From a virus (lineage: Duplodnaviria > Caudoviricetes), in IMG/VR virus record IMGVR_UViG_3300036773_000046, positions 1 to 64,000 of that record: a stretch of 64,000 bases of DNA; one strand, written 5' to 3'. Below, one piece after another: positions 1 through 25,118 of this stretch (positions within the stretch are counted from its first letter, which is position 1; each line of letters starts with the position of its first letter). Both the position numbers and the translations under genes were made by a program. The notes beneath the pieces were generated by a model, which saw only the letters and a list, made by a program, of their open reading frames with translations, made no database searches and was not told the origin of the DNA.

Positions 1-874
1 AGTGCGTGTTCACCCACGCGGACGACTGCTGCGACGTGTTAAGTGGAAACGTCTTAGCCACGCGCACGTACGCGGTGTAGGTGACGCCGTTCTGCAGCGG
101 ACCAGTCACGACGGATAGGTTGTCGTTGGCAATGAAACCCGAGTCCCAGATGGGTGTACTCGTGTCAGGGTTGAAGCCCGATCCCGCGATGGTCGCCGCG
201 TCGAACACGCGCACAACGTATGCCACCATCGTGTCAACGTTGTCGGGGTCCGAGTAAACATATGAGATCGTCGGCGTCGAGTTGTTCGTAAAGTTGCTCG
301 CCGCAACGCCCGACACGATCGGTTGCGTGTGAATGTCGATGTCGGCGTAAAGCTCGTAGATGCGTTGATTGGCAAAGAAGTTGTTGCCCTGATTAGTGAC
401 GTCGTTGGAGTCGACGACGAGGCAAAGGTTGTTTGTGACGTCGCTGGACACCCACTCCTTGCCGTAGCTGGAGGTAAGCACCTTCGGTCCACTGAACGTC
501 GTGATGGCGGTGGTGGTGCGCTTACTCGTCCAGAACCCAATGGTCGTACTTGAACTACCCGACACACGGTTGAAGTTGAGTTGGGTAGCCTGGGTGGCAG
601 GACCCGTGGCGTCACGCGCGTTGCGGATGCGTGAGAGCACGCTGTAGATGCGCTGGGTGGCGGCGTTGAACGACGCGGGGTTGGTGCAGAGGAAGTTCAA
701 TACGCCAGACGCCCCGTCAGCTTCCTCGTCGATCCACGTGCTGTCAGAGTTATCACTGACTGCATTCTTTAGATCGGTGTTGTTGTTGACCGACCCTGCC
801 GGTTCCTCAAACCATGTCGTTCCGGGGCTGCGGAAGTTGACGCTTGTCGGTCGTACAGTGTGGATCGTGCTCAT
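1..874 (-). CDS. Minor tail protein directly downstream of the tape measure gene (runs off the window edge)
   Basis: Translated by hand; absent from the ORF track because it is truncated. ATG at 874 overlaps the TMP stop (ATGA). The frame is open to position 1 (MSTIHTVRPTSVNF...). It has an N-terminal beta-sandwich followed by an Fn3/Ig-like segment. Confidence 0.75.
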   Translation of the reverse strand, partial: MSTIHTVRPTSVNFRSPGTTWFEEPAGSVNNNTDLKNAVSDNSDSTWIDEEADGASGVLNFLCTNPASFNAATQRIYSVLSRIRNARDATGPATQATQLNFNRVSGSSSTTIGFWTSKRTTTAITTFSGPKVLTSSYGKEWVSSDVTNNLCLVVDSNDVTNQGNNFFANQRIYELYADIDIHTQPIVSGVAASNFTNNSTPTISYVYSDPDNVDTMVAYVVRVFDAATIAGSGFNPDTSTPIWDSGFIANDNLSVVTGPLQNGVTYTAYVRVAKTFPLNTSQQSSAWVNTH

Positions 875-3800
875 CGCCGCACTCCCTTACGGTGATGTGT
901 GGACTGATGCTTGGTCACGATGTGCGCCTGCCCGTCCGCGTCGAACGAGATCTCAAGTCCCTTGAACGCCTCGGCGACGGCACGTGCAAGTTGATGCTCG
1001 TCGATACGTAGCCTACGTTCCTCACGGTGAAGACGGTGACGATCACGCGCGAGACGTTCGTGAAAGAGGTCGTGGCCGGCAGTGACGCCCGCCGCCGTGC
1101 CGTAGTTGCCAAGGGTGCGGTAGTCAGAGTTGATCATGCTGATCTGCTTAGGCGTCGCATCGGCCAGCGCCTGCAGCTGTGCCATCGCGGCGGGACCAGC
1201 GGCGGCGAGCTGGCCGACGAGGATGCGGTTCAAGCCTTCCTTAGCAACCTTCTTCAGCAGGCGTGCGAACATCTTCGCGTTCGCAATGGTGGCACCCAGC
1301 TGCACTAAGATCGTCTTTGCGCTGATCTTGGCCGGGTTGCCTCGCGTGTCCGTCATACCCGCACCGGCGCTGGTGATGTCAAACGTGCCGAGAATGTTGC
1401 CGTGGATCGAGTTTACCTCGTCCTTGTACGACTTGGTGAGGTTGTTGAGGTCAGCCTGAGTCTTGGAGATCTGATGCGTCAGGTCGTTTCGCTTTTGAAT
1501 CAAGTGAATCATGCGCTCTTCGCGATGCTCGAGTTCACGTAGCGCGAAGTGGTGAATCTCCGCCTCCTTGTTGAGCTCACGGAACGCCTGCCGCACGTCC
1601 TTGACGGACTTAACACCCTTCTTCTGGAAGTCGTCCATCGTCTTGTTGATCGACTTCCACTCCTCCTCGACCTGCTTTATCGCGCCCTTAGCGGTGGTGA
1701 ATTGTCGCGCGGCGTGGTGCGGGTGTCGCATCCGATGAAGAATCTTTTCAAGATCGGCCATCTGCGCGCCACGAACGAAGTCACCTCCGTGCCATGCGCC
1801 GCCGTGATCTTGATGACGCAAGATTCGACGGATGATGTCGGCGAGCTTCTTAGGCAGGATCATCTCACCCTTGTGCACGCGCGCCGTCTGATCGCGCGGC
1901 ACGTTCAACGTTCCCGTCTCGTAGCCGACGTACCCGCCACCACGCGCCAGTGAGACGATGCCGGGGACGTTGCCGAGGTTGCCGTAGGTGGAGATCGCGT
2001 AGCGGATTCCCGCGACGATGTTGGACAGTGGGTCGTAGATGTTGTTCGAGAGGTTGCGCAGACGGTACGCCTCGAACGTCGTCATGATCGTCTGCATGAG
2101 ACCACGCGACGGGTCACCCGCCGCGAAGTTGGAGTCGCTGCGGTTGATCGCGTTCGGGTCCCAACCCGACTCGTAGTTGATGATCGTGTTGACGTCGGCG
2201 ATGTCCGCCGCGTCGACTGGCGCACCCGCCAACGAAAGTGCGTGCTTGATCAGCGCGAGATGCTCACCCGCCGGGATGCTGCCGACGCGCCGCGCCGCCG
2301 CAGCCTTCTTACGTGCCTCGCCGCCGATCTTCGCGATCAGCGCACGGATGCCGTGATCCACCCAGTTGAATCCGCCGACACCCACGTCGCGCAAGATTCC
2401 ACTGGGCAGGTGATACACCGCCTCCTTGAAGGGGAACTCCGCAGCGGTGAGCGCCTTGCCCAACACCCACGCCGTGCCTTTACGAATTAAGCTAACAACT
2501 TCCTTGAAGGGCTTGCCGATGTCAGACAGCAGCGCGCCGAACCCAAACCCGACGCCAGTGCCGCCGAACTCGTGCGTCGTTCCCTTCAGTCCCTTGTTGA
2601 TCTGCCCAGGACTAAGTGGTCCCGTGTCGGCGAACCGGCCAAACGCGGCGGAGTTGCCAAGTGCGCGACCAGTGAACATCTCGTTGAACTTCTTCAACCC
2701 AGCGGCGCCACCTAGCGCACGCACCGCCTCAGGCCGGATGATTCCTTCGCCGCCGCTGAACCAGTACGACGGGACCTTCCAGATGTCACGTCCCGGCGTG
2801 TAGCCTGGGAAGACGTATCCCGGCCTCACCTTATCATTATCGCCAGGCGTGATACCACCGGCCGCGAAGGCCATCTTGTGTCCACCACCGCCGCCACCGC
2901 CGCCTCCACCACCCAGAGAGAACGTGCTCAGAGTGTTGATGTGCAGGTTGCCGGGCAGCTTGTCCAACACCCAGTCGATGGCGCGAATGAAGAAGTTGAT
3001 CACGTGAATGACGGCGTTGATGCCGTGGATGATCGCGCCCTCGATGCCGTTCCAGATCGAGCTAAACGCGTGCGACATGTTATCCCACAGGTCCGACCAC
3101 GCGTTGCCGATCGCCTTGAAGATCGGCTGCAACGCGTGCCACAGCGCCTTCACGGTGCCGGTGACTATGTTAAAGACTGGACGGCCGACGGCGTTCCAGA
3201 TGGCCTGGGCGACGTGCCACACGGCCTTCCACGCGTCGATGTAGAGCTTGAAGATCGTGCTGACGACCGCCCACCAAACCTTGAAGACCGCCTTGATGAT
3301 CTCAAAGATTGGGTGGCCGATGTTGTTCCACGCCCACTTGGCCAGGAACCACACACCCTTCCACGCGGCGATGTACGCCAGGAGGATCCCGCCGACGATG
3401 GCGTACCACACCTTAAAGACGACCTTGATCACCTCAAAGATGGGATGTCCAACGTTGCGCCACGCCGCCTGCAACGCGTGCCACGTGTACTGCCACGCGG
3501 TGACGAGCGCGTTGATGACCGCCTTGATGACGTGCCACGCCGCGATGAAGAACCCCTTGACGTCATCCCACACCTGGTTGACGATGTCCCGGAACGTCTT
3601 ACTGTGCTTGTACGCGTACACAAGCGCGGCGGCCAGTGCGATGATCAGCGAGATGATCGCAGCAATCGGGTTGGCGTCGATCGCGACGTTGACGGCGAGG
3701 ATTGCATCCCGCACGGCCATCAGGATCTTGTAGCCCTTCCACGCCGCCCAGAACGCAATGATGGCAACTGTGAGAGTTCGCACCAGGGTACCGTGTTCCC

Positions 3801-4863
3801 TGATAAACTTAGCGGTGCTCTCTAAGAGTGGCTCAATTTGCGCGAGTGCACGTTGCACGTATGGCCACGCCTGACGACCCAGGTCGATTACCTCGTGTAC
3901 CAGCGGAACCAGCACCGCCCACAAAGCCTTGAAGACGTTACCCAGCGTCGCTAGTACACCCTTACCCTTACCCGCCTCCTCGAACAGGTGCTCAATGCCG
4001 GGCAGTAACTTTTGAGAGAAGAAGTTCTCAACGGCGTCGATGACCGGCAACAGCCTGTCACCCATCTCAACCTTGAACGCCTCCCACGACGCGGACATCT
4101 TCGCGCCCGCGGTGGCCTGCGCCTCGGCTGAGTGACCAAACTCGTGATTGATCTCGGCGAGGATAAACTTCTGCGCGCGCAGTTGCTGCCCGTGCGCGAT
4201 CCATCCCTTGACCATGTCCTGCTGCGTCTTGCTAAACGACACGCCGATGCGCCGCAGCGCCGTCATGCCGAGCACGGGATCGTTCAGCGCCTTACCCAGC
4301 TGGATCGCGGCGGACTTCGCGCTCTCATTCATCGCGACGGAGGTGTCCAACACAGCCTGCGTCGCCTGATTGAAGATGTCGTTGCCCTTGCCGACCTCGT
4401 TGCGGATGCCGCGGAAGGTCAGCAAAAGGTTTTCAGACGCGCGGATCTGCGTCTGCGTGATGCCGGTGTGCTCACTCTGCACCTTGGCGAGCTCTTCCAC
4501 ATCGCCCGCGGTGACGTGTGCCGCACCACCGGTTGACTTAATCACCGCGGCGGTCTGACGAAGTTGCTTCTCTTCCTCGCGTGCCGCGGCGACCGAGTCC
4601 TTCACAAACTTAAACGCCTCAATGGCGCCAATGGCCGGCAGCGCGAACGCCGCCACCCCCTTGATCTGTTCCTTGAGCCTTGCGAACATGCCCGCCGACG
4701 CCTCGGCGGTTGCGGTGGCGGTGCTCGTCGCCGCCGCACTCATTTCCTCCGACTGCGTTCGCGTCGCCGCGGCCGCCTCGTCCACACCCGCGCGGACGCG
4801 CGTCGCAAACCCTCGCATGTCTGGGAGGATTTCAACGTACGCGCGTCCGAGGGGTGCACTCAC
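871..4863 (-). CDS. Tape measure protein with C-terminal SLT lytic transglycosylase domain
   Basis: 1330 aa. Ala-rich helical N-terminus, roughly 11-residue periodic Trp/Phe repeats, and SLT motifs (YESGWDPNAIN, SRGLMQTI, NIVAGIRY). It follows the chaperone ORFs. Confidence 0.93.
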   Translation of the reverse strand: MSAPLGRAYVEILPDMRGFATRVRAGVDEAAAATRTQSEEMSAAATSTATATAEASAGMFARLKEQIKGVAAFALPAIGAIEAFKFVKDSVAAAREEEKQLRQTAAVIKSTGGAAHVTAGDVEELAKVQSEHTGITQTQIRASENLLLTFRGIRNEVGKGNDIFNQATQAVLDTSVAMNESAKSAAIQLGKALNDPVLGMTALRRIGVSFSKTQQDMVKGWIAHGQQLRAQKFILAEINHEFGHSAEAQATAGAKMSASWEAFKVEMGDRLLPVIDAVENFFSQKLLPGIEHLFEEAGKGKGVLATLGNVFKALWAVLVPLVHEVIDLGRQAWPYVQRALAQIEPLLESTAKFIREHGTLVRTLTVAIIAFWAAWKGYKILMAVRDAILAVNVAIDANPIAAIISLIIALAAALVYAYKHSKTFRDIVNQVWDDVKGFFIAAWHVIKAVINALVTAWQYTWHALQAAWRNVGHPIFEVIKVVFKVWYAIVGGILLAYIAAWKGVWFLAKWAWNNIGHPIFEIIKAVFKVWWAVVSTIFKLYIDAWKAVWHVAQAIWNAVGRPVFNIVTGTVKALWHALQPIFKAIGNAWSDLWDNMSHAFSSIWNGIEGAIIHGINAVIHVINFFIRAIDWVLDKLPGNLHINTLSTFSLGGGGGGGGGGGHKMAFAAGGITPGDNDKVRPGYVFPGYTPGRDIWKVPSYWFSGGEGIIRPEAVRALGGAAGLKKFNEMFTGRALGNSAAFGRFADTGPLSPGQINKGLKGTTHEFGGTGVGFGFGALLSDIGKPFKEVVSLIRKGTAWVLGKALTAAEFPFKEAVYHLPSGILRDVGVGGFNWVDHGIRALIAKIGGEARKKAAAARRVGSIPAGEHLALIKHALSLAGAPVDAADIADVNTIINYESGWDPNAINRSDSNFAAGDPSRGLMQTIMTTFEAYRLRNLSNNIYDPLSNIVAGIRYAISTYGNLGNVPGIVSLARGGGYVGYETGTLNVPRDQTARVHKGEMILPKKLADIIRRILRHQDHGGAWHGGDFVRGAQMADLEKILHRMRHPHHAARQFTTAKGAIKQVEEEWKSINKTMDDFQKKGVKSVKDVRQAFRELNKEAEIHHFALRELEHREERMIHLIQKRNDLTHQISKTQADLNNLTKSYKDEVNSIHGNILGTFDITSAGAGMTDTRGNPAKISAKTILVQLGATIANAKMFARLLKKVAKEGLNRILVGQLAAAGPAAMAQLQALADATPKQISMINSDYRTLGNYGTAAGVTAGHDLFHERLARDRHRLHREERRLRIDEHQLARAVAEAFKGLEISFDADGQAHIVTKHQSTHHRKGVRR

Positions 4864-5652: not shown

Positions 5653-6066
5653 TCAACCAATGGTCGAGCGCAACGCGTCCTTCAGGAACGGAGTGCCGCG
5701 TTGACCACGAACCGACGTGGCGTGAATTAAGATTCCCGACTTCGTTGTGAAGACCAGGTACGAGTAGTGCTTAGGACGAATGGGCTGGCCCGTCGGCCCA
5801 TACACGCCCGTACCGTCGTGCACGAAGCCCGCGTAATCGACGTCCGTGCCGACCTCGGCCACCGGAACGATCATCCCGTCCACAGACTTATACACGATCT
5901 TTGTGGTGATTGACTGGCGAAGACGTCCCTTATTCGCGGGAGCCATGCGCTTCGCCGACGTCTCTACCCGCAACCCGCGGCGCAACATACCCTTCATGAG
6001 AATGCCGTTGGGACCCGCCAGTGCGGCGTTCACCTCGGCGGTTGGAACTTCGACGCGCCAGCTCAT
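5653..6066 (-). CDS. HK97 gp10-like neck/tail-completion protein
   Basis: Motifs APANKGRLRQSI, YAGFVHDGT and GQRGTPFLKDAL. Confidence 0.75.
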   Translation of the reverse strand: MSWRVEVPTAEVNAALAGPNGILMKGMLRRGLRVETSAKRMAPANKGRLRQSITTKIVYKSVDGMIVPVAEVGTDVDYAGFVHDGTGVYGPTGQPIRPKHYSYLVFTTKSGILIHATSVRGQRGTPFLKDALRSTIG

Positions 6067-7731: not shown

Positions 7732-8079
7732 TTAGATCGCTGGGATCGGACCGACGGCGGATGCAACGTCGAATGTGATCAAGTTGGAAGCGTACCGTTG
7801 CACGCCGTTGCCAGCGAAGAACTGCGCCGAGTAGTGCCCAGGTGAGACAAGGTCCGTTCCCGTCCACGAGTAGACTACACGGCCCTTATTCGCTGATGGC
7901 TGCAGCACCGCAGATCTAGTAGCCGCCGTTTGATCGAACTTCTCCCTGTAGTAGAACTTGACCGTGTAACCTGAAAGATCAAGCACAGTGCCGTCAAACT
8001 CTTGAAAGTCGTAGGCTAACGGCGCTGGGATCTCACCAACGACGAATGGACCGATGCCTACGGTAGGAGGACTCGTCAT
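7732..8079 (-). CDS. BppU N-terminal-like Ig-fold virion protein
   Basis: Motifs DLSGYTVKF, GRVVYSWTGTDL and PGHYSAQF. Confidence 0.55.
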   Translation of the reverse strand: MTSPPTVGIGPFVVGEIPAPLAYDFQEFDGTVLDLSGYTVKFYYREKFDQTAATRSAVLQPSANKGRVVYSWTGTDLVSPGHYSAQFFAGNGVQRYASNLITFDVASAVGPIPAI

Positions 8080-10655
8080 GACGGCGTTCCCGACTCTCTG
8101 CCAGATACTAAAACCTTACCAGTTCGCCCGCTAATGACAAGGGCATTCTCACGTCCACCGATGAACTGCGTGGCCTCACGACCGTGAACAACGATGAGAC
8201 TGTCAGTCACCCGGTTGAGCAACGGCGTGTAGATGAGCACAGTTCCTTGGATCGCCGAAGATGCGAGCTCGACGTTACCCTGTGCCGACACCGATGGGTT
8301 CCAGACGCGCGCCGCCGCCATAATGGTAGGCGCCGCAGGCACGGCATCGCTGGTGAAGGTGCCGGGCAAAATTGATGTCGAACTTAAGATTGTCGATGGG
8401 TGCAGTGTGATGTCGATGATGATGTGAGGTAGCGGTATCAAACTGGTTGTGCTGACTGCGGCCGCAGTGATGATGCTGCCGACGGATAGGTTTCCTGATG
8501 GCACTAACGTGCTGCCGAGAACTGCAGTCGGTGTGACCGTACTTCCCGTGCCGGCGATGATCACCGGAGGCGTGTAGATCGACGTTGTGCCGAGCACGGT
8601 AGTTGCTGCGGCGTCTATAGACGAGTGCGCTACGGGCGCCGTAATACCCGTGCTTGCGGCGATGATGCTGGGGAATACGTTGACGTTCCCGGACGCGATA
8701 ACCTGCGGAGTAGGAATCGTCGTTGTCACCGAGATCGCGGTCGCAGTGATCCGAGATCCGACCGACACTGTGCCCGCGAAGATCGCAGTAGTTGCATTGA
8801 CTGCGGTTGCCGTGATCGCCGCACTGCTCGTGATCGTTGGTGCAAAGATCGTTGTAGTGCCTGCGATTGCCGTTGCTGTAATCGCTACGCTGCTCGTGAT
8901 CACCGGTGCCGGGATCGACGTGCTCGCCGGGATCGCGGCGGCACTCGCGCTTGCGTTGCTCGTGATCGTCGGAGTGAAGATCGCCGTCGTGCCGGGAACG
9001 CGCGTAGGCGTCGCGGTGCTCGATGCCGACGTGACCGGAGTCGGAATGGTAGTGGTGGCCGCAATGGCTGATGCGGTGATCGCTACCGAACTAGTGATGA
9101 CCGGAGTGAAGATCAAAGTTGTAGACGAAGTCGCGACTGCGGCTACCGTCGAACCAACGTGCACGACCGGCGCGGGGATCGATGTGGTCGCAGAGATCGC
9201 AGTAGCTTGAACGTTGACGTTTCCCGCCGCCGACACTGCGGGAGTGAAGATCGTTGTGCTCGCCGCAATGACGGCGGGCGTCACGGTGTCACTGGTGGCT
9301 ACAGCCGGAGTCGAAACGCTGGTAGTCGCACTGATCGCAGTCGCGGTGATCGCTACGGAAACCGAAACGACCGGAGTCGGAATCGACGTGCTACTTGGTA
9401 CGGTACTCGGGGTGGGAGACGCTCCGCCTACGAGAACACCCTTGAGTGCGACCTGCAACACCGTCCATCGTGCAGACAAGATCGTTGCACTGACGTTGAC
9501 CGTCGATGTGTCCCCGGTGATTTGATCAGCAACGGTGGACCAGAATGCCGTGCTCACGTGCGTCTGATCAACGGGAACAAAGTTCCCGGTCCAGTTGCTC
9601 GGTGATCCACCGCTGATGCCGTTGGAGATGCACGCGAGCATCCACTCTGACGCCTGTGTGCGCGTCGTAGAGCCGGACACGGCGGGTGCGGTGCTGCCGG
9701 TCGAAGACTGCCCCGTTGCTTCGCCAGCGCTGTCTTTAGTCGATGTGGTGACGATGCCCGACGCGGCGCGTGCGATCATCGCGACGGTACCGGTAGCGCT
9801 CGTGAACGTTGCCTTGATCCAACTCACGCCCGCCGTTAGCGGCGAGGTGTTCACTGCGACGTAGCAGTAGACTTTGATGAAGCTGTTGCCGATCTCGCTG
9901 ATCTCTAGGTTGTACGTGTTCCCGGCAGAGTCAGTGATCCCGGTGCAGTCCGTAGTGTTGTTGGTGAAAAACACCACGATTGCATCCCCGGCAACCGTGC
10001 TCGTTGTTGCGGTGACTTGGTAACTCGTAGCCGCAGAGACAGCCGTTTCGGACTTCAAAACGTTGTACGGCGTGCCGATACCGACGCCAGTGATCAACGG
10101 ATTTCCGATCACTGCCTCGACATCGAGAACAAACGACTCGATCAATACCGAGCTGGTAACCGTCGGGGTTGGAATCGTAGACGTTCCACCGATAGCACTT
10201 GCAGTGATTGACGCGTTGCTAGTGATCGTCGGCGTCGGGATCGATGTCGTAGCTGCGATAGCACTTGGCGTTGCAGTCACCAACGTGCCGACCGTCGGCG
10301 CAGGAATCGTCGTGATTGCGCCGATCACAGTCGGAGAGATCTGCACATCGCTGTGCACTACTGCAACAGGAATCGACGTAGAACCGGGAACCACAGTGGC
10401 AGTGATGTTGACGTTCGTCACGACGAGCAGATAGCTAACGTTCATGACGGCGTAGTCGACATATTGCCGCGCGCCACTTTGCGAACTGCCTGAGTTGGCG
10501 AAGATCCTGAGTCGGAGGTTCGGCAATTGCGAGTACGTCACTCCGGTGAAGACAACTTGATCGATGTGATTGGGATCAGTAGAAGCTTTCCCGGATTTGG
10601 TGCTGCCGATCTGCGCTGTCGTTCCATCCCAGAGTTGGTAAGTCGGCTTATCCAT
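8076..10655 (-). CDS. Thr/Ala/Ser/Pro-rich repeat virion protein with internal beta domain (859 aa)
   Basis: Many imperfect repeats of about 19-20 aa (ITATAIAATTSIPTPTV). Located in the structural operon, with a GGTGAT SD-like sequence upstream. Confidence 0.7.
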   Translation of the reverse strand: MDKPTYQLWDGTTAQIGSTKSGKASTDPNHIDQVVFTGVTYSQLPNLRLRIFANSGSSQSGARQYVDYAVMNVSYLLVVTNVNITATVVPGSTSIPVAVVHSDVQISPTVIGAITTIPAPTVGTLVTATPSAIAATTSIPTPTITSNASITASAIGGTSTIPTPTVTSSVLIESFVLDVEAVIGNPLITGVGIGTPYNVLKSETAVSAATSYQVTATTSTVAGDAIVVFFTNNTTDCTGITDSAGNTYNLEISEIGNSFIKVYCYVAVNTSPLTAGVSWIKATFTSATGTVAMIARAASGIVTTSTKDSAGEATGQSSTGSTAPAVSGSTTRTQASEWMLACISNGISGGSPSNWTGNFVPVDQTHVSTAFWSTVADQITGDTSTVNVSATILSARWTVLQVALKGVLVGGASPTPSTVPSSTSIPTPVVSVSVAITATAISATTSVSTPAVATSDTVTPAVIAASTTIFTPAVSAAGNVNVQATAISATTSIPAPVVHVGSTVAAVATSSTTLIFTPVITSSVAITASAIAATTTIPTPVTSASSTATPTRVPGTTAIFTPTITSNASASAAAIPASTSIPAPVITSSVAITATAIAGTTTIFAPTITSSAAITATAVNATTAIFAGTVSVGSRITATAISVTTTIPTPQVIASGNVNVFPSIIAASTGITAPVAHSSIDAAATTVLGTTSIYTPPVIIAGTGSTVTPTAVLGSTLVPSGNLSVGSIITAAAVSTTSLIPLPHIIIDITLHPSTILSSTSILPGTFTSDAVPAAPTIMAAARVWNPSVSAQGNVELASSAIQGTVLIYTPLLNRVTDSLIVVHGREATQFIGGRENALVISGRTGKVLVSGRESGTPS

Positions 10656-10661
10656 GAGTGA

Positions 10662-12725
10662 TCACCGACTCGCTGCTGTTGCGTACGCGGCGGCTGCCAG
10701 TGGCGAATAGCTTGGGTTGGTCGGGTGAGTGATCGGCCACGGCTTCATGTTGCTCGCGCCGTTGTCGGATTCAAACATCATGGTCGCAACGACCACATCG
10801 CTGTTGGCATCCATAAGTGCAATGACGTCAACGAGGAAGTCTCGACGCGCGCCATCAGAGATACCGGGCGAGTACGGAGGATTGAGGCGTCGCGTACCAA
10901 GTTCACCGTACATGATCTTTTTGCCCATTGATCGAGCTAGATCAATTGAGTGTTGCAAGACGGTCGACGCCGTTTGTGCGGACGCATCGTCAGTGCCCCA
11001 TTGATACATGTCTCCGCCGATGAAACTAATACGCGACATATCCCAACCGGAGAACCATTGCTCGGCGGTAAGATCAGGATTCCGCCCCGGGATGTAGGTG
11101 CCACCTTCGAGCGTCGGCACAAGAAACACTTTGCCTCGTCCGTTCGCATCGATCACATCCTGCGCAGCGTTCTGCACTGCTCCCCAGTCGGCACCCGTGG
11201 CGTAACCCTTGGAAAAGTTAGGTTCGTGCGCCACCGAGAGATATTGCGTACCGGCGCGCGCGGCCAACATCTGCACTTGCGCAGCCGTGACGGTATTTCC
11301 AGGATCGAAAAACACCGCCGTGTTCGCGTTGACGTAGCTCGGCACCGTAGAGTCGAACAAACGAATGATCTTGAGATGGTTACCAGTTCCGACGAACGCG
11401 TTCGTAATGCGCGTGTACGCCGAAGACTTGGCTTCACCCAAACTCTGCCACCAACCGCCGACACCCGATCCGTACAGCACTCCGGTACCGGTGTTGATCG
11501 TTGGTGCCGTGAAGCTGACCGTTGCCGCAATCGCAGTCGCGGTGACCTTTGATCCAACGTGCACGATCGATGAGGTAAAGAAACTCGTTGTGCCCGGAAC
11601 TCTCGTTGCGGAACTCGTAATCGACGTACTCACTGCCGTAGCATTGATCGCGGTCGTTCCGGGCACACGTGTCGGAGAGATCGACACACCACTTCCGAAT
11701 GATCCAGGATAAAGAGACGTCGAGCCGGGTACAGCACTTGCCGTCACGGATGCATTTTTTGCCACGACCGGAGTTGATATTGACGACGTAGAACTGATCG
11801 ATGATGCAACAATGCCGATCTTCGTCTCGTCATAGAACGCGTTGACCGTTACGTAAACTGCATTGATCGTATCGGTTGGGTGCACTTCGGTAAACGAACC
11901 AAACCCAGAGATCTCTAGTACCGACGACGAAACACCGGCAGCGACAGTTGGTTCCGGTATCGAGGTAGTGGATGCAATAGCCGTAGGCGTTGCGGTGGCG
12001 GCGGTACTAACAGTTGGTGCCAGTACCGACGTAGTGACGGCAATAGCCGTAGGTGTTGCAGTGGCATTAGTGCTAGCAGGCGCAAGTGCGATGATCCAAC
12101 CGTTGGATCGATGATTCACCGTGACGGTTGCCGTTGGTGCGGACTGCGAAACACCGGCCTGCCCGACTAGCTGCTTATGCCCTGCCCATAAGCCGACGTT
12201 GGACGCAGTTAGAAAGCCGTCTTGATCATCTGCGTCTTCAGTCCAGCCGCTCGGCGGCGTCGTTGTGAACGTGCCCTGTGCCGATGTGGTAGTGATGCCT
12301 GCGAGTGCTACAAGCATGCAATCGTTCGCAACAGGAGTGATCGCCGACATCACAAGGTTGCCGTCGGCAGTATCGTCGCTGAAAGACACCGGAGTTTGAT
12401 CTTGTGACAAGCTGTCTGCGATCAACAGAATCACTGACCATCTCGGCGCGGCACCAAACGTTCCCGACCACGTAGTTCCACCCTCAGTGCCATCAGACGT
12501 ACGAGTAAAGAGCCACGTCACGCAGTTCGTAGCGCTGAGCGGACCGAGTGGTGAATCAGACGTGGCTGTCCAACCACTCGGCGGAGTGAGTGTGGTGTTC
12601 ACATTCGCCTGCACGAGCAGATACATAAGATCACCAGACACAGGCGCAGACCCACCGGATGGAATGGTGATCGACGGAGTACCGCCTGCGGTGGTAGACG
12701 CATGACTAGTGACGTTGATCGTCAT
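10662..12725 (-). CDS. Virion protein: beta domain + Thr-rich repeats + C-terminal clan GH-A (GH26-like) glycoside hydrolase domain
   Basis: TAATG coupling at 12725. The C-terminal TIM-barrel-like region has SVAHEPN (acid/base), FIGGDMYQW and IMYGELG (nucleophile). Confidence 0.65.
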   Translation of the reverse strand: MTINVTSHASTTAGGTPSITIPSGGSAPVSGDLMYLLVQANVNTTLTPPSGWTATSDSPLGPLSATNCVTWLFTRTSDGTEGGTTWSGTFGAAPRWSVILLIADSLSQDQTPVSFSDDTADGNLVMSAITPVANDCMLVALAGITTTSAQGTFTTTPPSGWTEDADDQDGFLTASNVGLWAGHKQLVGQAGVSQSAPTATVTVNHRSNGWIIALAPASTNATATPTAIAVTTSVLAPTVSTAATATPTAIASTTSIPEPTVAAGVSSSVLEISGFGSFTEVHPTDTINAVYVTVNAFYDETKIGIVASSISSTSSISTPVVAKNASVTASAVPGSTSLYPGSFGSGVSISPTRVPGTTAINATAVSTSITSSATRVPGTTSFFTSSIVHVGSKVTATAIAATVSFTAPTINTGTGVLYGSGVGGWWQSLGEAKSSAYTRITNAFVGTGNHLKIIRLFDSTVPSYVNANTAVFFDPGNTVTAAQVQMLAARAGTQYLSVAHEPNFSKGYATGADWGAVQNAAQDVIDANGRGKVFLVPTLEGGTYIPGRNPDLTAEQWFSGWDMSRISFIGGDMYQWGTDDASAQTASTVLQHSIDLARSMGKKIMYGELGTRRLNPPYSPGISDGARRDFLVDVIALMDANSDVVVATMMFESDNGASNMKPWPITHPTNPSYSPLAAAAYATAASR

Positions 12726-13936
12726 TAGGGCACCGCCCACACGGCGTACTGATCATCGTTGCTGCCCGTGGCAAGCGTGACGTTCACCCACACGCCCGAT
12801 CCACCGCCAAGATCACTTGCGCTGCCGCCGTAGTGCACACTCGACAACGACGTACCCCACGCAGGCAGGTACACCGCAGTCATAGGGATGATCGAAATCG
12901 GGAAGATCGACACTCCGGTAGGAATCGACGGCGCGAACAACGCACTCGTTGCGGAAATCGAAACCGAAGTGATAACCACGCTTTCACTGACCGTCGGCGT
13001 CGGGATCGACGTCGAGCCGGGGACAGCCGTAACGCTGGTGATCGGAAGTTTCGGGACCAGAATCGATGTGCTCGCGCCGATAGCTGTAGCCGAGATCTTG
13101 TCAACACTTGGCGTAGGCAGCGATGACGTTGCCGCAATCGCGGTAGGTGTGACATTGGTAGACAGGGTGACTGATGGTGTCGGTACCGACGTCGTTGCGG
13201 CGATCGCCGTCGGCGTTGCCGTCGCGTTCGTTCCTGCCGGACCGATGAAGCCATCCGTCGTTGCAGCAACGTCATCAATGTATGCGTTGAACGTCGCTAG
13301 CGAGGTGGGAAGCCCGAACCGTGCTTCGCCGATCACGGCGGTAAGTGCGGCAGAGCCAGACACGGCCAATTGCTCAGTGAAGCTGCCTACCGCTGATTCA
13401 AGATCCGCACCCGCGAACAACCGGCAGTCTACCGACCCGGTTGTCGTTGAAGGCGTCACACTAATATCAACTCGATACCACGTGTTGAGCGAAAGGTGTG
13501 TAGTGCCGGTGGTCAGCACCGTTGTGCCGTTAGATGCAACCGTGCGTAGCGTCGTGTTATTGGATGCCTTAGAAAGCTGCACCGCCATAGTGAGGGTGCC
13601 GCCACCGACGGCGTCAAAGAAACTAAACAACCTACGTGCGACGCCATTAGCCGGGAATGAGGTGCAGTAGAAGTAGAAGCGCGCGTAATGTGTGGCGGTT
13701 GACGATGCTCCGAGCGTTGTAGTGTTCCAGCCGAAATATGCAGTTCCAGCGGTAGAACCTACGGAACAAAGAATTGCCGTCGAACCGAGATGGGAATGCG
13801 TAGCGCTATAAGTGAGAGTGTTTCCGGATCCCGAGACGACCGCAGTATCGAATTGATCAGGGCCACCCGAATTACTGGTAGAGACGGCGGTGGTGTCCGT
13901 GCCCTCGCAGGTATTACTGGTAACCGCCATGATCAC
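12725..13936 (-). CDS. Virion protein with LamG/concanavalin-like N-domain and Thr-rich repeats
   Basis: Motifs YARFYFY, LNTWYRVDI and AYIDDVA, followed by TPTAIAATTS repeats. Confidence 0.65.
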   Translation of the reverse strand: MIMAVTSNTCEGTDTTAVSTSNSGGPDQFDTAVVSGSGNTLTYSATHSHLGSTAILCSVGSTAGTAYFGWNTTTLGASSTATHYARFYFYCTSFPANGVARRLFSFFDAVGGGTLTMAVQLSKASNNTTLRTVASNGTTVLTTGTTHLSLNTWYRVDISVTPSTTTGSVDCRLFAGADLESAVGSFTEQLAVSGSAALTAVIGEARFGLPTSLATFNAYIDDVAATTDGFIGPAGTNATATPTAIAATTSVPTPSVTLSTNVTPTAIAATSSLPTPSVDKISATAIGASTSILVPKLPITSVTAVPGSTSIPTPTVSESVVITSVSISATSALFAPSIPTGVSIFPISIIPMTAVYLPAWGTSLSSVHYGGSASDLGGGSGVWVNVTLATGSNDDQYAVWAVP

Positions 13937-13972
13937 CTACCTCGCGAGGTGGCGACGTTGGCACTCAGCGGA

Positions 13973-14428
13973 TTAGTGCAGAGTGATACGTGCCAAGCCG
14001 TTAGCATCCCAAGTAACGGCGAACGTTCCGGAGACAGTCGAATAGTCCGCGCCGAACGTGATCGCCATGATCACGGCCTTTGGCGACAGGGTGTTGTCGT
14101 AGATCGCGCAGCCACGCACGTTAGTAAGTGTGGTCGCCGCTTGCGATACGTCGTTGGCATCGAACATCACACCGACGGTGCTCACGAGTGTCATCGTCGG
14201 TGATCCCAGTGCGACGCCGCCAGCAGCCCAGCCGGTGCCCGAGACCTCGTTGGCGTTGTACGGCGCAACGTTGTACGTCGCAGGGTCCGTGTCTTGCGAG
14301 TTGGTCAACGTGTTGTTGAACAACGCAATGTTGATCGTGTCAGGCGAAGTGCCACCCCAGTTGAGCGCAATTGCGTTTTTGAACGCGTCGCGGATTGTCG
14401 CCGACTGGATCAACGAGGTAATTGCCAT
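13973..14428 (-). CDS. Conserved small virion structural protein
   Basis: Motifs DTINIAL, NEVSGTGW.AGG and FDANDV..GTFAVTW, as seen in phage minor structural proteins. Confidence 0.6.
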   Translation of the reverse strand: MAITSLIQSATIRDAFKNAIALNWGGTSPDTINIALFNNTLTNSQDTDPATYNVAPYNANEVSGTGWAAGGVALGSPTMTLVSTVGVMFDANDVSQAATTLTNVRGCAIYDNTLSPKAVIMAITFGADYSTVSGTFAVTWDANGLARITLH

Positions 14429-14868: not shown

Positions 14869-15543
14869 TTACGCTAGAATGACCGAACCACACGCGGCGG
14901 TCGGCGGCGCGTTGGTCGTGATGTTCCACAGCCAGTGCTCGGTGGTTAGCGCCGCAGGCGTACCGGTGGGCAGCCACGTCGATGCACCCGGGCCGTCAAA
15001 CCACTGCGACGACGCGGCGGCGGTGTCGCAGATGAAGCTCAACGTCGAGCGCGCGTTGCTGACGTTGTACGCACCCACCTGCGTGTTGTAGCAGTGCGGC
15101 CACGCGTTGTACACGTACTGCGCAAGACCCGCGGCGTTGCACGCGCCCGCGCCTGCCACGCGCTGCCACACCTCCATCGAGTAGTGCGCGCTCGACGGGC
15201 CCTCGGACAACGCAAAGCCCATGCCGCTAACGGGTGCCGACGTGACGAGCTCACGTGCGGACAGCACGTACGGCATCATGTCCGGGTCCACCGTCAGGAG
15301 GTCCGTCTGGAGCGACATGCGCTTCAAGATCGGAGGATCGACCTGGTTGACGCCAATGCCGCCGTCGGCGGTACGCTCGAAGAAGTCGGTGCCCGCCTCG
15401 TACTGCGGCGTCATTGCGACCTGGGTGAACAGGTTGGTGACGACGACGTGACTCGACGCGCCGGTGACGGGGTTGCCGCAGACGTCCAGCTGAACGATGC
15501 GAATGACGACACCCTTGATAGGTGCGCCGCAGACTGATGCCAT
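14869..15543 (-). CDS. Major tail (tube) protein
   Basis: Resembles actinophage tail tube proteins (RIVQLDVCG.P, G.DF.ERTADG, Y.Y.AWP). Located after the capsid genes. Confidence 0.7.
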   Translation of the reverse strand: MASVCGAPIKGVVIRIVQLDVCGNPVTGASSHVVVTNLFTQVAMTPQYEAGTDFFERTADGGIGVNQVDPPILKRMSLQTDLLTVDPDMMPYVLSARELVTSAPVSGMGFALSEGPSSAHYSMEVWQRVAGAGACNAAGLAQYVYNAWPHCYNTQVGAYNVSNARSTLSFICDTAAASSQWFDGPGASTWLPTGTPAALTTEHWLWNITTNAPPTAACGSVILA

Positions 15544-15550
15544 GATTACC

Positions 15551-16480
15551 TCACGTTCCCTTCGGAACACCAAGTGATACTTGCGCTGCGAAGAGGCAGC
15601 AATCCCAGCCGAGCACGTAGGTGCGCTCGGCGATCATTCGCATCGTGTTCACCGCACGGTCCATCGCCTGCGCGCCCTGCGGGGCGCGCACGCGAACCTG
15701 CGACCGATAGCCAAACACGTTGCCCGTGCCGTACATCCAACACGCGTTTCCACTGCGGTTGGAGCCGTCAGGACCAGTGCCCTGGAAGCCAATGCCCACC
15801 GCCACCTTGTTCCCGTTCGCCGTGTAGAGCGTCGGGGAGTTGCCGGTACGCTTGATCAGGTCCCAGGCGTCGAGCGTGGGTAGCAAGATGTCGGGGACGT
15901 GGATGACGCCGACGCCTCCGTAGCAGTCTCCCATCGCGGATTCGATCAACCCAAGTGCGGTTGCCGCGTTCAGCAGGTCGCCACTTACACCCGTAACGTT
16001 CACCGCCGAAGGCTGAAGCAGCACACCATCCGAATCCCTCACCACGGCATTCGCAGCTAGGTGCGGGAAGACTACTTGCTGCCCACCAGCTTGACCAGTC
16101 CAAAACGCGTTCTCCACCTGCCATGGTTCGGCGACGGACAACGCGCGTTCCGCGGTCGCCTGCGCCTGCTGATTCCCCACGGGTGCGCAGTCAAACTCTG
16201 AGTACACGACGAACGAGGTGGCGCCACGCGTCACCGAGCTCACCGTGTTGGCGAGATTCGCGGGTGACGGCGGCGAACCCGTTCCGGTAACGGCAATGCA
16301 ACCCGCCGCGTACGTGCTCGCGCCGAGGTGCCCGGACGGTCCACCCGAGTCGCACAGCGACTGATACGTGATGCCCTGCATCCAGTGCTCAGGCGCGGGT
16401 GGAAACTCAACCGCAGTGAGTAGACCGAAGGGACTAGGAGTGTACGATGGCGGGTCGACCACCTGCCGCATACCCGCCAT
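15551..16480 (-). CDS. Second capsid protein (putative pentamer-type, Mycobacterium cluster B-like)
   Basis: 309 aa immediately after the major capsid gene, with P.P.GLL, E.A.E.AFWTG and AERTY.LGWDC motifs. The family call is from memory. Confidence 0.55.
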   Translation of the reverse strand: MAGMRQVVDPPSYTPSPFGLLTAVEFPPAPEHWMQGITYQSLCDSGGPSGHLGASTYAAGCIAVTGTGSPPSPANLANTVSSVTRGATSFVVYSEFDCAPVGNQQAQATAERALSVAEPWQVENAFWTGQAGGQQVVFPHLAANAVVRDSDGVLLQPSAVNVTGVSGDLLNAATALGLIESAMGDCYGGVGVIHVPDILLPTLDAWDLIKRTGNSPTLYTANGNKVAVGIGFQGTGPDGSNRSGNACWMYGTGNVFGYRSQVRVRAPQGAQAMDRAVNTMRMIAERTYVLGWDCCLFAAQVSLGVPKGT

Positions 16481-16525: not shown

Positions 16526-18298
16526 TTAGATGCGCGCCGTCGGGGTGCCGAGGACGTACGCCGAACCACCCGTGGCGCCATTGACGCCAAAGTTAAGGTT
16601 GTAGACGCGCGACTCGTTGCCGACCTTCGCCACCAGGTGGCATTCCTCGGACCACGCGGCGGTGAAGTCGTTCGTCGCGTTGAGGACGGAGTCGCGAACG
16701 ACGCCGAGGTCGAGGGTAAGGCCGTTGCCCTTGATGAACGTACCCGCCGCGTAGACCATGATGCTTGCGGTCGTAGGCCAGGCGATCATCGAGGTGTTCG
16801 GGTTGCCGAACTGACCCGCTCCGCGGAACTGCCAGTCGCCGACCCACTGGACGCGAATGTTACGCGCCGCCAGGTACTGGTCGATTTCGGTATCCGAAAC
16901 CGACAGCGTGTTGCCGAACGCGCGCCACGCGAGGTCCGCCTGGATGAGGTCCTTGACCCAGTACGGCAGCACCGTCTCCAACGGCACCTCGTCCGGGATG
17001 GCGAACTTGGCACGGTAGTCGGTGCAGGCGAGGTCGATGCCGTTCACGACGGTCTGGTATACGGGCGAGCTGCCCGCCGAGCCGAGGCCGGTGGCGACTG
17101 TGGTCGAGAGCGCGACCATCTGGGAGATGATGCGCGCGTTCTGCGCGTGCTGCCACGCGGTGAGGAGCAGACGCAGCGTGTGCGCGGTGGCCTCGGGGTA
17201 CGCGTCATCCGTCAGGTTGCCCGCGGTCAGCGTAATGCCATAGCACTCAAGCCGCTGCTCGGAGAACGACGGGCAGGCGACTCGGATCGTCGGCTTGGTC
17301 GGCGAGCCGGTAACCGCCGCGATGTCGTCGGTCTCCGTCCAGACCCAGGGATCCGAGCCCGAGGTGAACGCGACGGCGAACGGCGCGAGACCCTTCGAGC
17401 CGAAGGCGTCGGCGATGGACGGCGAGACCGGGAACTTCAGGCCGCCGCGACTGATGCCGACGGTGGGAAGGTCGATCAGTCCGTCCACGCCCGAGACGTT
17501 GAAGAAGTCGTACTTGATCTCGGACGGCGCGCACCAGCCGCCACCCGCGACGAGGGACTGCATCTTCTCGGGACGCCGCAGGTAGTTGATGAGCTCGTCC
17601 ATCTGCGCGGGCGACGTGCGGTCGTCCACGGTGTGCTCGAACTCGTTGCGGATCGTGCAGACCAGACGCTCCTGCGGCGCGTTGCGCGTCACGGGCGCCG
17701 ACTTGGCGGCGCGCTGGAACGCCTCGACGATGTCGTCGAGTGAGGTCATGTTTGAGCCACGCGCGACGCCAGGAATGTCGACGCCAGCGGTGACAGCCAG
17801 CTTCTTGTTCTTCGACACGTCCACGGGCGGCGCAGCCTTGCGCGCGTCGGCCAGCGTCGCGAGTCCGCCGTTCCCACGCACCCGACGCTCGCCGGCCGCC
17901 GCGACTAAGGTCTGCGCGACGCCACGTGACGCGGCCTCGGTGATCGCCGCGAGGACCTCGGCCGACAGCTCGCCGGGAACCGCGCCGTTGCCGCCGCCTC
18001 CACCTTCGCCGTCGCTGGGGCCGTGAACACGCTCGCGCAACGCCTCGCGAGTCTCGAGCATGCGCGCACGCTCGGTCTCTGCGGCGAGTTCAGCGCGGGC
18101 GGTGCGCCCGGCCTTCTCGGCGTTGATGCGGTCGATGTCGTTCGCCAGCCGCATTTGGTACTCGAGGCCCTCCGCGGTGACGTTGTCGTCGTTTGACAAC
18201 CGATCGAACTCGGCGGTCGCCCGCTCTTCGACTTCCGCCAGCTCTTCATCACTGATGAGCGTGAGGTCCGCGGGGACCTGAACAATGTCGTCAGCCAT
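16526..18298 (-). CDS. Major capsid (hexamer) protein with N-terminal scaffold-like region
   Basis: AAAGGAG RBS, acidic coiled-coil N-terminus, and the motif LVAGGGWCAPSEIKYD...LPTVGISRGGLKF typical of cluster B-like capsid proteins. Confidence 0.85.
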   Translation of the reverse strand: MADDIVQVPADLTLISDEELAEVEERATAEFDRLSNDDNVTAEGLEYQMRLANDIDRINAEKAGRTARAELAAETERARMLETREALRERVHGPSDGEGGGGGNGAVPGELSAEVLAAITEAASRGVAQTLVAAAGERRVRGNGGLATLADARKAAPPVDVSKNKKLAVTAGVDIPGVARGSNMTSLDDIVEAFQRAAKSAPVTRNAPQERLVCTIRNEFEHTVDDRTSPAQMDELINYLRRPEKMQSLVAGGGWCAPSEIKYDFFNVSGVDGLIDLPTVGISRGGLKFPVSPSIADAFGSKGLAPFAVAFTSGSDPWVWTETDDIAAVTGSPTKPTIRVACPSFSEQRLECYGITLTAGNLTDDAYPEATAHTLRLLLTAWQHAQNARIISQMVALSTTVATGLGSAGSSPVYQTVVNGIDLACTDYRAKFAIPDEVPLETVLPYWVKDLIQADLAWRAFGNTLSVSDTEIDQYLAARNIRVQWVGDWQFRGAGQFGNPNTSMIAWPTTASIMVYAAGTFIKGNGLTLDLGVVRDSVLNATNDFTAAWSEECHLVAKVGNESRVYNLNFGVNGATGGSAYVLGTPTARI

Positions 18299-18482: not shown

Positions 18483-20366
18483 TTACACCTCCCTCTTACC
18501 GTGAACACGCTCGATCAACTTGCGCTGCACGGCGCGCATCGCGATCTGCTCGAGCTCTTCCTCAGAAAGTTCAGCCTGCTTGGGCCGCTGCACCGGGACG
18601 ATGCCGGACGCGACGAGCGAACGGATCTCTCCCGAGGCGACGAACGAGCGACTCGACGGTGCCTGGTAGCCGGAGGTATTCACCGTGAGAAGCGCGACCA
18701 TCCGAAGCGCTCCGCCAATGCGCCGCCAGTCGGGAGAGACCTGCCCCGACGCACGCAGTGAGTGCACCCGGGACGCGTGAGCCCACGGCCGGATCGCGCC
18801 CGCGACCCAGATGCCGTGCTTGTCGTTACCTACGACCACGTCGGCGACGCACGCGTCGGTGTTCTCGTAGTGCTCCTTCGCCTTCGACGCGCTCAGGTGA
18901 AGTGCGGCGTGCTCGATTCCCGCGGTGATCTGGCCGACGGCGACGGTGGTGCCGTCGTCCAGCGGAACCTCACCCGTGAGGAAGTACGCGTGAAGATCTT
19001 CGCGCGGCGGCATGACGCACTCGTCCATGTAGCCAAGGTGACACTGCGCCCACGCGGCCGCGTGGCCGTACACACGACCCGCGTCGGTGACCATGATCGG
19101 CACGTACTGTCCGAGCCCAGGGTTGGTGAACCACTCCGCAGGCGGACGCCACACCTGGTCCGTCCAGCTCGACGCGACGATCACCTCGGCTGAAGTCTCG
19201 AAGGGCGGCGGCGTCTGGCCCGCGTCCTCGAGATGCTTCGCCAAGTGATCGTAAGCGAGACGACGATCAGACTCGGAAAGTTCAGAGCCACCACGTCCGC
19301 CGTGAAGCAAGCCAATTCCCGCGGCGCAGGCGGTGACGTTGGCCGCACCCGCGACGCCGTCCTCGCCGACCTCGTGATGCAAGATCCCGAAGACCTCGTG
19401 ATCGACGGTGGCTTCGACGACGCGGCTGGCGTGAACCGCCGAGTCCCAGGTGCCGTCGGACGTTGCGGTCTCGTGCACGTTCGACTTCGCGGCTTCGAGT
19501 GCCATCGCAGATCGCTCATCCTCGGGGATGGGCATGATCTTAGCCTCGACGAACGCGGGAATGTCGCAGAGAGTGGCGGCGCGAACGCGGGCCGAGTGAA
19601 AGATGATCTTGTCTGGCGCCGCGAACAGCATCTTGAACAAGCTGTCCTCGTCGTCTTCCTCACCCTCTTCGGGATCGGCCCACACGTACTCGACGTCGGC
19701 GTCGGTGATGTCGTCGGCATCGATGCTGATTCCCGTGAGCGCACCTGCCTGGTTGCGCCGGTACGCCTCGTGTGACAGGTCGTCGTCGGATCCGCCGAGG
19801 TCGAAGATCCCCTCGGCCATGATCTGGTTCGTGCCGTCGGGTCCGGGCTCGCGGTACACACGCTGTATCGTGCCGACGTTCACGGTCTTGTTCTGCGGCA
19901 CGCCGCCGTGAGAGTCCTCGTATTGCCAGCGCAGCGGCAGTGGCGGGTCCGCCCAGGAAAGCGAGTCGAGCGCGAACTCACGCCCGTCGCCAGTCGGCGT
20001 TCCCTCGACGACGAGGGGCCCGCGCCACATGGGCGCTTCGGTCATGACGGGTGGGGCGTCCATCTCGGTGTCGTCCGCCGCGGCCTTCTTCGCCGCACCC
20101 GGCTTGTTGACCCTCTTACGCTTGTCGGCTGGAGTGCCGGGACTCGGCTTACCGCCGAAGTCTTCTTCGGACTCAGGTGTGAGTAGCTCGGTCATGGTGC
20201 CTCCAGACGTGGTTACCGTACCAAAACGAGAATGCGTGCCAGCAGTGATGACTCCACGACTCCCCAAGTGCAGCTCCGCATCAGGTGTGTAGTCCTTGCG
20301 GAAGAAGAATCCCGGTGTGATCTCTTCCGCATCAGTGGGTGCGTTACGCGGACTCGTCATGGGCAC
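18483..20366 (-). CDS. Capsid maturation (prohead) protease
   Basis: Motifs WRGPLVVEGTPTGDGR, PLPLRWQ..SHGG, GISIDAD, ARVRAATL.DIPAF and GRVYGH.A.W..CH. Located between MuF and the capsid gene. The start is uncertain. Confidence 0.75.
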   Translation of the reverse strand: MPMTSPRNAPTDAEEITPGFFFRKDYTPDAELHLGSRGVITAGTHSRFGTVTTSGGTMTELLTPESEEDFGGKPSPGTPADKRKRVNKPGAAKKAAADDTEMDAPPVMTEAPMWRGPLVVEGTPTGDGREFALDSLSWADPPLPLRWQYEDSHGGVPQNKTVNVGTIQRVYREPGPDGTNQIMAEGIFDLGGSDDDLSHEAYRRNQAGALTGISIDADDITDADVEYVWADPEEGEEDDEDSLFKMLFAAPDKIIFHSARVRAATLCDIPAFVEAKIMPIPEDERSAMALEAAKSNVHETATSDGTWDSAVHASRVVEATVDHEVFGILHHEVGEDGVAGAANVTACAAGIGLLHGGRGGSELSESDRRLAYDHLAKHLEDAGQTPPPFETSAEVIVASSWTDQVWRPPAEWFTNPGLGQYVPIMVTDAGRVYGHAAAWAQCHLGYMDECVMPPREDLHAYFLTGEVPLDDGTTVAVGQITAGIEHAALHLSASKAKEHYENTDACVADVVVGNDKHGIWVAGAIRPWAHASRVHSLRASGQVSPDWRRIGGALRMVALLTVNTSGYQAPSSRSFVASGEIRSLVASGIVPVQRPKQAELSEEELEQIAMRAVQRKLIERVHGKREV

Positions 20367-24551: not shown

Positions 24552-25118
24552 TTACCATCCCGTAGGTAGTCCCGACGTGTTGCCGGGAATGTGATGTCGC
24601 CAGATCCACGTCATCTCCGGTAAGTGAACGATGTGAGCGCCCGCCTTGACGCAACCTAGCGTAAACCGCCAATCCTCCCCACCCACGGTGGCACCTTCGT
24701 CCGGCGCCGTGAACCCGACCTCCTGCGCAAGATCGGTCTTGACTCCAACGATCATGGTGGTGTGCGTCGGTTCATCTGGATTGAACTCGTGTCCGAACAA
24801 CCGAAGCACGTCCAACGAGACCGAGGTGTCGTAGTAGCTGAAGACGTAATCCGCGTCCGTGTCCACCGCGCACTGCAGCAGGTGCGCGGTGTGCTGTGGC
24901 TTGAAGAGGTCGTCGTCGTCGAGGAAGAACGTCCACGTCGTCCGCACGGCGTCCAGCGCGCGCTGTCGCGTCAGCCACGCGCCCTCACGGTTCACGTCCA
25001 TGGCCACCGACACCGCGGTGGCCGGCAGATCTTGGCACCACACCGAATTCAACGCCGCCTGTCGCAGCTCTCGACGTGGCGGAATCGTCGGCATGGCCAC
25101 CGCGTAATCGAACTTCAC
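24552..25118 (-). CDS. GT-A (family 2-like) glycosyltransferase
   Basis: Motifs AMPTIPPR, FFLDDDD, GGEDW and HLPEMTWIW. Confidence 0.85.
   Translation of the reverse strand: MKFDYAVAMPTIPPRRELRQAALNSVWCQDLPATAVSVAMDVNREGAWLTRQRALDAVRTTWTFFLDDDDLFKPQHTAHLLQCAVDTDADYVFSYYDTSVSLDVLRLFGHEFNPDEPTHTTMIVGVKTDLAQEVGFTAPDEGATVGGEDWRFTLGCVKAGAHIVHLPEMTWIWRHHIPGNTSGLPTGW

Follow-up and report, generated by a model that had tools for sequence, protein, structure and literature searches.

Three consecutive genes of an actinophage-like virus hold, in order, the pieces of one jelly-roll domain that may act as the plug and socket of a phage appendage

Here we describe a domain that is divided among three consecutive genes, P1, P2 and P3, in the first 64 kb of a single 79,066-bp contig (IMG/VR record IMGVR_UViG_3300036773_000046; these 64,000 nucleotides are the window) from a virus with a siphovirus-type genome. 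Judged by profile comparison, three non-repeat islands in these genes, i1, i2 and i3, are true fragments, in order, of one domain of ~165 residues. We think it probable that these pieces of one jelly-roll fasten P1, P2 and P3 together by fold complementation, as a plug-and-socket joint. The fuller proposal is that three polypeptides co-fold into one jelly-roll and so form a three-way appendage joint, built on a widespread and undescribed plug-and-socket system in which a tag of ~40 residues ending ...W-T-V-P-COOH docks diverse heads; to this we give slightly less than an even chance. The genes and pieces concerned, in the order of transcription, are as follows.

12725-13936, minus strand: P1, 403 residues; a globular N-terminal module of ~235 residues, about five 22-residue repeats and the C-terminal plug i1 (from translation and repeat map)
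12728-12844, minus strand: i1, P1 residues 365-403, SSVHYGGSASDLGGGSGVWVNVTLATGSNDDQYAVWAVP and then the stop; the first three short strands and one helix
10662-12725, minus strand: P2
11946-12725, minus strand: first intervening segment (i1 to i2), the P2 N-terminal 'domain B' of ~220 residues and two repeats
11820-11945, minus strand: i2, P2 residues about 261-302, ...VSSSVLEISGFGSFTEVHPTDTINAVYVTVNAFYDETK; strand 4 and the long strand 5
10665-11819, minus strand: second intervening segment (i2 to i3), about five repeats and a 275-residue GH26-like module that ends at the P2 stop
10656-10664, minus strand: P2/P3 junction, a TGA stop, Ser and Leu codons and the ATG of P3, all in the same frame (...AYATAASR*SLMDKPT)
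8076-10655, minus strand: P3, 859 residues; i3, repeats, a globular module of ~250 residues, about 15 repeats and a non-repeat C-terminus of ~60 residues (from translation and repeat map)
10428-10655, minus strand: i3, P3 residues 1-76, MDKPTYQLWDG...VDYAVMNVSY; the last five strands

The islands were identified with a profile built from seven proteins that carry the domain in contiguous form, which was run against all 1550 six-frame open reading frames (ORFs) of the 79,066-bp genome. Exactly three matches were obtained at E<0.01, namely the islands of P1, P2 and P3, and these tile the profile, with P1 residues 365-403 on positions 4-43, P2 residues ~262-298 in the middle and P3 residues 1-76 on positions 86-161. 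A first-pass annotation of the DNA had placed three islands of one beta-sandwich at these places and in this order, and in this it was correct. Wider sub-profiles for i1, i2 and i3, made from about 25, 89 and 113 family segments, respectively, none of them from this genome, scored the pieces at 41.7 bits (E 9e-12; family median 45.9), 43.1 bits (E 2e-12; family median 58.7) and 110.0 bits (E 4e-33; family median 108.5), and the runner-up ORFs of the genome reached E 0.41, 0.04 and 0.55 for pieces 1, 2 and 3. The i2 score is low because the piece stops 8 profile positions before the end. Among the 1550 ORFs, each piece was found once, and no intact domain was seen to which the P1 plug could dock. 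In alignment with six plug ends of other viral loci, i1 has the invariant residues G26, G28, W30, D41, A45 and W47; i2, aligned with eight viral homologs at 24-45% identity, has the invariant L16, F21 and I33; and the starting Met of P3 is matched by Met in four of eight aligned viral homologs and in many database matches, one such relative being P0009 (...STAL-MDPPTYELWDG). Given that the bit scores are typical of intact members and that family-invariant residues are kept, we see no sign of decay in the pieces. The same annotation had also drawn a motif-by-motif parallel between the joined pieces and the N-terminal domain of the minor tail protein encoded at 2-874; that likeness is rejected at the sequence level, as BLASTP of the concatenated pieces was not significant, the domain profile had no match there and hhalign gave a probability of 0.04.

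The domain has many relatives. A phmmer search with P3 residues 1-80 against 1.84 billion representative proteins returned 107 proteins (46 at E<=1e-10), in nearly all of which the match is internal, and an i2-like stretch directly precedes the i3-like stretch. Contiguous homologs were looked for and found, 12 of the 107 representatives having i1-i2-i3 without a break as N-terminal copies. The predicted fold of one contiguous homolog, P0091 (167 residues), is a ten-strand beta-sandwich (predicted local distance difference test, pLDDT, 96.7; predicted template modelling score, pTM, 0.90). This model resembles the carbohydrate-binding module (CBM) CBM4-2 (PDB 4bj0) with a Z score of 10.9 over 133 residues and a root-mean-square deviation of 3.3, many other CBM and MAM chains at Z 9-10, and predicted phage tail proteins at template modelling (TM) scores of 0.78-0.82; Foldseek gave a probability of 1.0 to jelly-rolls of the CBM/MAM/galactose-binding type. 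The jelly-roll suspected from the sequence alone is borne out by this model, and the domain is, as predicted for the contiguous homolog P0091, a jelly-roll of that type. Its likeness to CBM4, CBM6, CBM61 and MAM lies in the overall fold of P0091 (Z 9-11 over 120-146 residues). Known CBMs are single-chain. The domain shares only 6-18% sequence identity with them and matches no Pfam profile, and any sugar binding is putative. On the P0091 model, i1 corresponds to residues 1-42 (three short strands and a helix), i2 to residues 43-85 (a short strand and the long strand 68-80) and i3 to the part from Met86 onwards (strand 86-95 and the remaining strands). Both cuts lie in loops of this model, the first after P42 and the second at the 81-85 turn.

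No family covering the domain was found with Pfam and PHROGs, either on eight family members or on P1-P3, and a profile search of PDB sequences returned nothing relevant to it. The atlas clusters nearest the domain are unnamed and 89-100% viral, and a literature search on strand complementation in phage fibres gave no description of a plug/socket family. A single-protein query of viral contigs had no match; a prophage scan of the genome contigs of 185,579 species, made with one peptide pattern only, had none either, which is weak evidence that prophages are without the domain. The domain constitutes an undescribed, phage-specific jelly-roll family, which may be recognised by its '...WTVP plug / ELWDG socket'.

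Within this family, the position of piece 1 is strongly restricted. In the 107 representatives it occurs at two sites only, abutting i2 (12) or no more than 3 residues from the C-terminus (38). The latter comprise all 38 non-contiguous copies of i1, each of which follows i2-i3 and a linker. Another 45 representatives have i2-i3 only. Among the 19 tails listed, the last three residues are W, T and then V, A, R or I; 18 of the 19 end in P, A or S and one in a variant order of WTV-P. Two plug ends from the loci finish in V, not P, and P1 itself ends ...YAVWAVP-stop (WAVP). Ten IMG/VR loci and two Logan contigs were then compared. In L003, L005 and L008 the socket protein bears a plug at its own C-terminus; in L001/2, L004, L006, L007, L009-12 and L013 plug and socket are on separate genes, one ending in i1 and lacking i2-i3, the other having i2-i3 but not i1, and the former lies upstream of the latter at a distance of zero or one gene. 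A plug gene upstream of a socket gene is accordingly present in six other kinds of phage locus, and in L004 the two genes (7758-8561 and 8558-10288) overlap as GTGA, comparable to the TAATG by which the P1 stop TAA overlaps the P2 ATG. The P1|P2 cut is thus, by these comparisons, the family's usual arrangement with the plug on another chain and no local accident. That it is a true gene boundary, with P2 starting at ATG 12725, is indicated by P0113 and P0114, which also contain domain B (47% and 35% identity, respectively) and, like P2 from that ATG, begin MTI(V/S).

BLASTP of the P1 head, domain B, domain C, the glycanase and the P3 C-terminus against the donor and acceptor proteins of the other loci gave no matches. 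The heads are unrelated between loci while plug and socket are conserved, which fits an exchangeable docking tag. An AlphaFold2 model of P0024 (i2-i3-linker-i1) has a socket at pLDDT 83-93, a C-terminal plug at 78-89 and repeat linkers below 50, and the modelled plug has the same pattern of strands and helix as i1 of the contiguous domain. The linker between socket and plug is bimodal in length (P0013-P0104), with 83-95 residues in 23 proteins, 173-193 in 14 and 219 in one; this would be about four or eight of the 22-residue repeats and hints at a defined linker structure or at two subfamilies. In one relative, L001 (2713-2916), the plug is on a protein of just 67 residues, hardly larger than the plug, followed by an 80-residue gene and then by P0009, which has two tandem sockets.

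The second cut, between i2 and i3, is of another kind. Pieces i2 and i3 abut in all family pairs, with an insertion in 0 of 102. Candidates for further splits at this point (P0030, P0078 and others) turned out to be fragmentary ORFs or assemblies with frameshifts, in which i2 lies immediately before the supposed start. Here, by comparison, ~390 residues of P2 (five repeats and the 275-residue module), a stop codon and two codons lie between the pieces. By this measure the phage is an atypical member of the family, in that pieces 2 and 3 are non-contiguous, and the i2|i3 cut is a lineage-specific insertion of repeats and the GH26-like module. The first-pass annotation had offered either strand donation in trans or two cassette insertions as the origin of the split; a C-terminal plug, which recurs in the family, accounts for i1|i2 and an insertion for i2|i3 only, so that neither covers both cuts.

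Based on these observations, we propose the following model. The plug would be the first ~40 residues of the domain (i1, GG-G-W...D..-A-W-T-V-P), often placed at an extreme C-terminus, either on the same protein behind a repeat linker or on a protein encoded upstream. The socket would be the remaining ~120 residues (i2 and i3), an incomplete sandwich that the plug completes, thereby fastening one virion protein to another. In the present phage the socket would have been cut again, at the hairpin turn between the long strand and the next strand, with the gap filled by five repeats, the GH26-like module and that module's own stop codon; the rest of the socket would be expressed from the Met at the start of P3 that is common to many relatives. 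P1 (a lectin-like head and the plug), P2 (domain B, i2 and the glycanase) and P3 (i3, a long repeat stalk, a globular module and a probable virion anchor) would then meet at a composite jelly-roll. The resulting appendage would be branched, and its flexible linkers would carry several heads that bind or cut glycans; gene order would place this complex on the virion. We infer both the co-folding of the pieces and the existence of P2 and P3 as two distinct chains.

Co-folding was predicted with three chains, P1 residues 354-403, P2 residues 255-310 as the partner and P3 residues 1-80, using small alignments from the viral loci. The three-chain complex, whose prediction the first-pass annotation had suggested as a check, passes its controls: the interaction prediction score from aligned errors (ipSAE) was 0.65/0.65/0.64, whereas none of the three controls scored above 0.00. 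Separate runs share 92% or more of their contacts, and the pLDDT of the partner is 63 or higher. In the contacts of lowest error, P3 residues 32-36 run antiparallel to the long i2 strand, which also lies beside P3 residues 66-73. The three pieces are, in these models, compatible with one fold; actual binding is not implied.

Several points weigh against a joint of three chains. Complex prediction tends to accept the parts of one domain through fold recognition, and the ipSAE mark, which 58 of 80 solved complexes and 2 of 110 mismatched pairs attain, was calibrated on pairs with other alignments and holds only roughly for three chains. Where one protein has a socket as well as a plug, the latter may work in cis alone. 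The 102 family pairs provide no second example of the i2|i3 cut, and no close relatives of P2 were found beyond its N-terminal module, so that the three-way state is not traceable in evolution and selection for it cannot be shown. Furthermore, P2 and P3 share one frame with a single TGA between them, and a one-chain product, hence a two-chain joint, could be real.

This last point leads to the strongest alternative, which we nevertheless regard as unlikely. P2 and P3 would be made, always or in part, as one protein of 1548 residues, to which P1 alone docks in trans, the arrangement customary in the family; the GH26-like module and the repeats would sit nested, as an insertion, within the i2/i3 hairpin loop, and the TGA would be a leaky stop, the product of a recent nonsense mutation or an error of sequencing. 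In favour of this, a loop can tolerate an inserted domain, P2 and P3 share a frame and are set apart only by the TGA and two sense codons, and the P2/P3 junction is unlike the others listed in the gene block, five of six of which are 4-nt start/stop overlaps (P1/P2 overlap by 1 nt, and the figure for one pair is 85 nt). However, two genes share a frame by chance in 1/3 of cases, and TGA is a normal stop and the commonest in this genome, where it ends 11 of 18 genes. The 275-residue module runs precisely to the stop, and proteins of 265-286 residues make up its nearest clusters, which is consistent with the module having brought a stop codon along, and P3 begins exactly at the Met common to many relatives. 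Given the chance of frame-sharing, the ordinary stop and the end of the glycanase module at that stop, we favour P2 and P3 as two genes.

It is rather improbable that the split is evolutionary debris, in which recombination broke the socket, i2, i3 and perhaps the P1 plug no longer co-fold, and the proteins are independent or otherwise anchored. The i2|i3 split is indeed unique among the 102 pairs, no relative keeps it, and the i2 score is near the 10th percentile of the family. That score is nevertheless accounted for by the 8 missing terminal profile positions, i1 and i3 score at the family median, and family-invariant residues are kept in all three pieces. In addition, there is exactly one copy of each piece, the P1 plug has no intact domain to dock into, and the complex prediction passes its controls. 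Finally, a contig chimeric at the junctions or a chance resemblance of the islands is scarcely credible, given E-values of 1e-11 to 1e-33 in the right order, intact long ORFs, a normal TAATG overlap of P1 and P2, P2 homologs that share its starting Met, and intervening stretches of 0.8 and 1.15 kb that are coding, in frame and contain the 66-nt repeat family of their flanks.

The plug-and-socket joint that we propose has parallels in known systems. In chaperone-usher pili (Fim, Pap, Caf1), a subunit whose beta-sandwich is unfinished takes up strands from its neighbour, which gives very stable non-covalent joints; the pilins have an Ig fold that lacks one G strand, the donor is an N-terminal extension, and a chaperone and an usher are needed. 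Unlike these pili, the present system would use a jelly-roll fold and a C-terminal donor of ~40 residues, and no chaperone or usher family was found among the neighbouring genes. A Foldseek match of P0091 to FimG, at rank 34 with a TM score of 0.25, is not meaningful. A split intein with protein trans-splicing was also considered and rejected: P1-P3 contain no Hint-type Pfam family and the intervening segments are ordinary globular modules and repeats. A closer parallel is found in the baseplate tripod of Lactococcus phage Tuc2009, where a crystal structure revealed that BppA, an additional carbohydrate-binding protein, is attached through a 25-residue C-terminal beta-hairpin of BppU that completes a beta-sheet in its domain 2 (PMC4742702). 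Here, a short C-terminal extension of one virion protein is likewise predicted, in keeping with the recurring gene neighbourhood, to supply strands to the beta-sandwich of another and to join the two by a flexible link. The Tuc2009 hairpin enters a small titin-like Ig sandwich, whereas here the donor would be ~40 residues (three short strands and a helix), the domain is a CBM-like jelly-roll with unbroken relatives, and the acceptor is itself cut in two. No sequence relation between the two systems was seen, none having been sought.

If the plug-and-socket reading is true, it would amount to a general and as yet unnamed way for phages of high-GC hosts to bolt exchangeable glycan-binding or glycan-cutting heads onto their virions, and would explain the shared ends of ~40 residues in many 'minor tail' or hypothetical proteins. 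Proteins that belong to one appendage could be better annotated, which would aid host-range prediction, and protein assembly would gain a natural split-domain tag of ~40 residues. Should the three-way version be true, a jelly-roll would be buildable from three chains, a matter that bears on folding and on gene fission at loops.

P1, P2 and P3 are mosaics of globular modules and 22-residue (66-nt) repeats rich in Thr, Ser, Ala, Ile and Pro. In a DNA repeat search the 66-nt units were only 60-80% identical to each other, and no long identical repeats that would mark recent recombination were found. The P1 head has a weak match to Laminin_G_2 (E 0.069), under the Pfam cut-off; in P2 and P3 Pfam found no family at E<=1, and P3 was without any PHROG match. 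The C-terminal module of P2 (275 residues; 10665-11489, minus strand) scored 0.94 in a language-model atlas, where 23 of 30 matches are in the GH26 set and the nearest clusters are from Actinomycetota and viruses; a glycanase of the GH26 type (clan GH-A) is a lead only. In P0113 and P0114 the P2-type module is N-terminal, ahead of other repeats or PKD-type modules. By eye, the N-terminal module of P2 (11946-12725) and the central module of P3 (9380-10130) are alike, with G-D...P-x-G-W-T motifs; BLASTP between them aligned only a 32-residue stretch at E 0.14, and paralogy is unproven.

The three genes lie in the following neighbourhood, between the genes for the major tail protein and the head-tail adaptor.

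27460-28836, minus strand: terminase
24552-27236 and 30908-31954: glycosyltransferase genes (the minus-strand gene order has glycosyltransferases between terminase and portal)
22105-23883, minus strand: portal
20357-22102, minus strand: MuF
16526-18298, minus strand: major head protein
14869-15573, minus strand: major tail protein
7732-8079, minus strand: 115-residue protein with a BppU_N match, directly after P3
6898-7719, minus strand: head-tail adaptor
5653-6066, minus strand: Neck1/tail completion protein
871-4863, minus strand: tape measure protein
2-874, minus strand: minor tail protein, cut by the contig start

The major head protein is 28-37% identical to its counterparts in phages of Gordonia, Microbacterium and Streptomyces, and the phage with the three-gene split domain is actinophage-like. 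A blastn search with 8000-14000 against 50,697 phage records gave no match. The contig ends are without mutual overlap and the minor tail gene at 2-874 is cut by the contig start; the rest of the tail-tip genes is missing from the assembly, or the contig is not closed. The 115-residue protein at 7732-8079 matches BppU_N, the N-terminal domain of the baseplate upper protein, with 25.8 bits (Pfam cut-off 23.1), and may be a candidate adaptor that anchors the P1-P3 appendage to the virion. Lastly, both in this phage and in the 78-kb IMG/VR contig behind L004 (L004 783-4993), glycosyltransferase genes occur in the late region, not far from the plug and socket proteins with their many repeats, and the Thr/Ser-rich repeats, which are disordered in AlphaFold2, could be O-glycosylated, mucin-like linkers.

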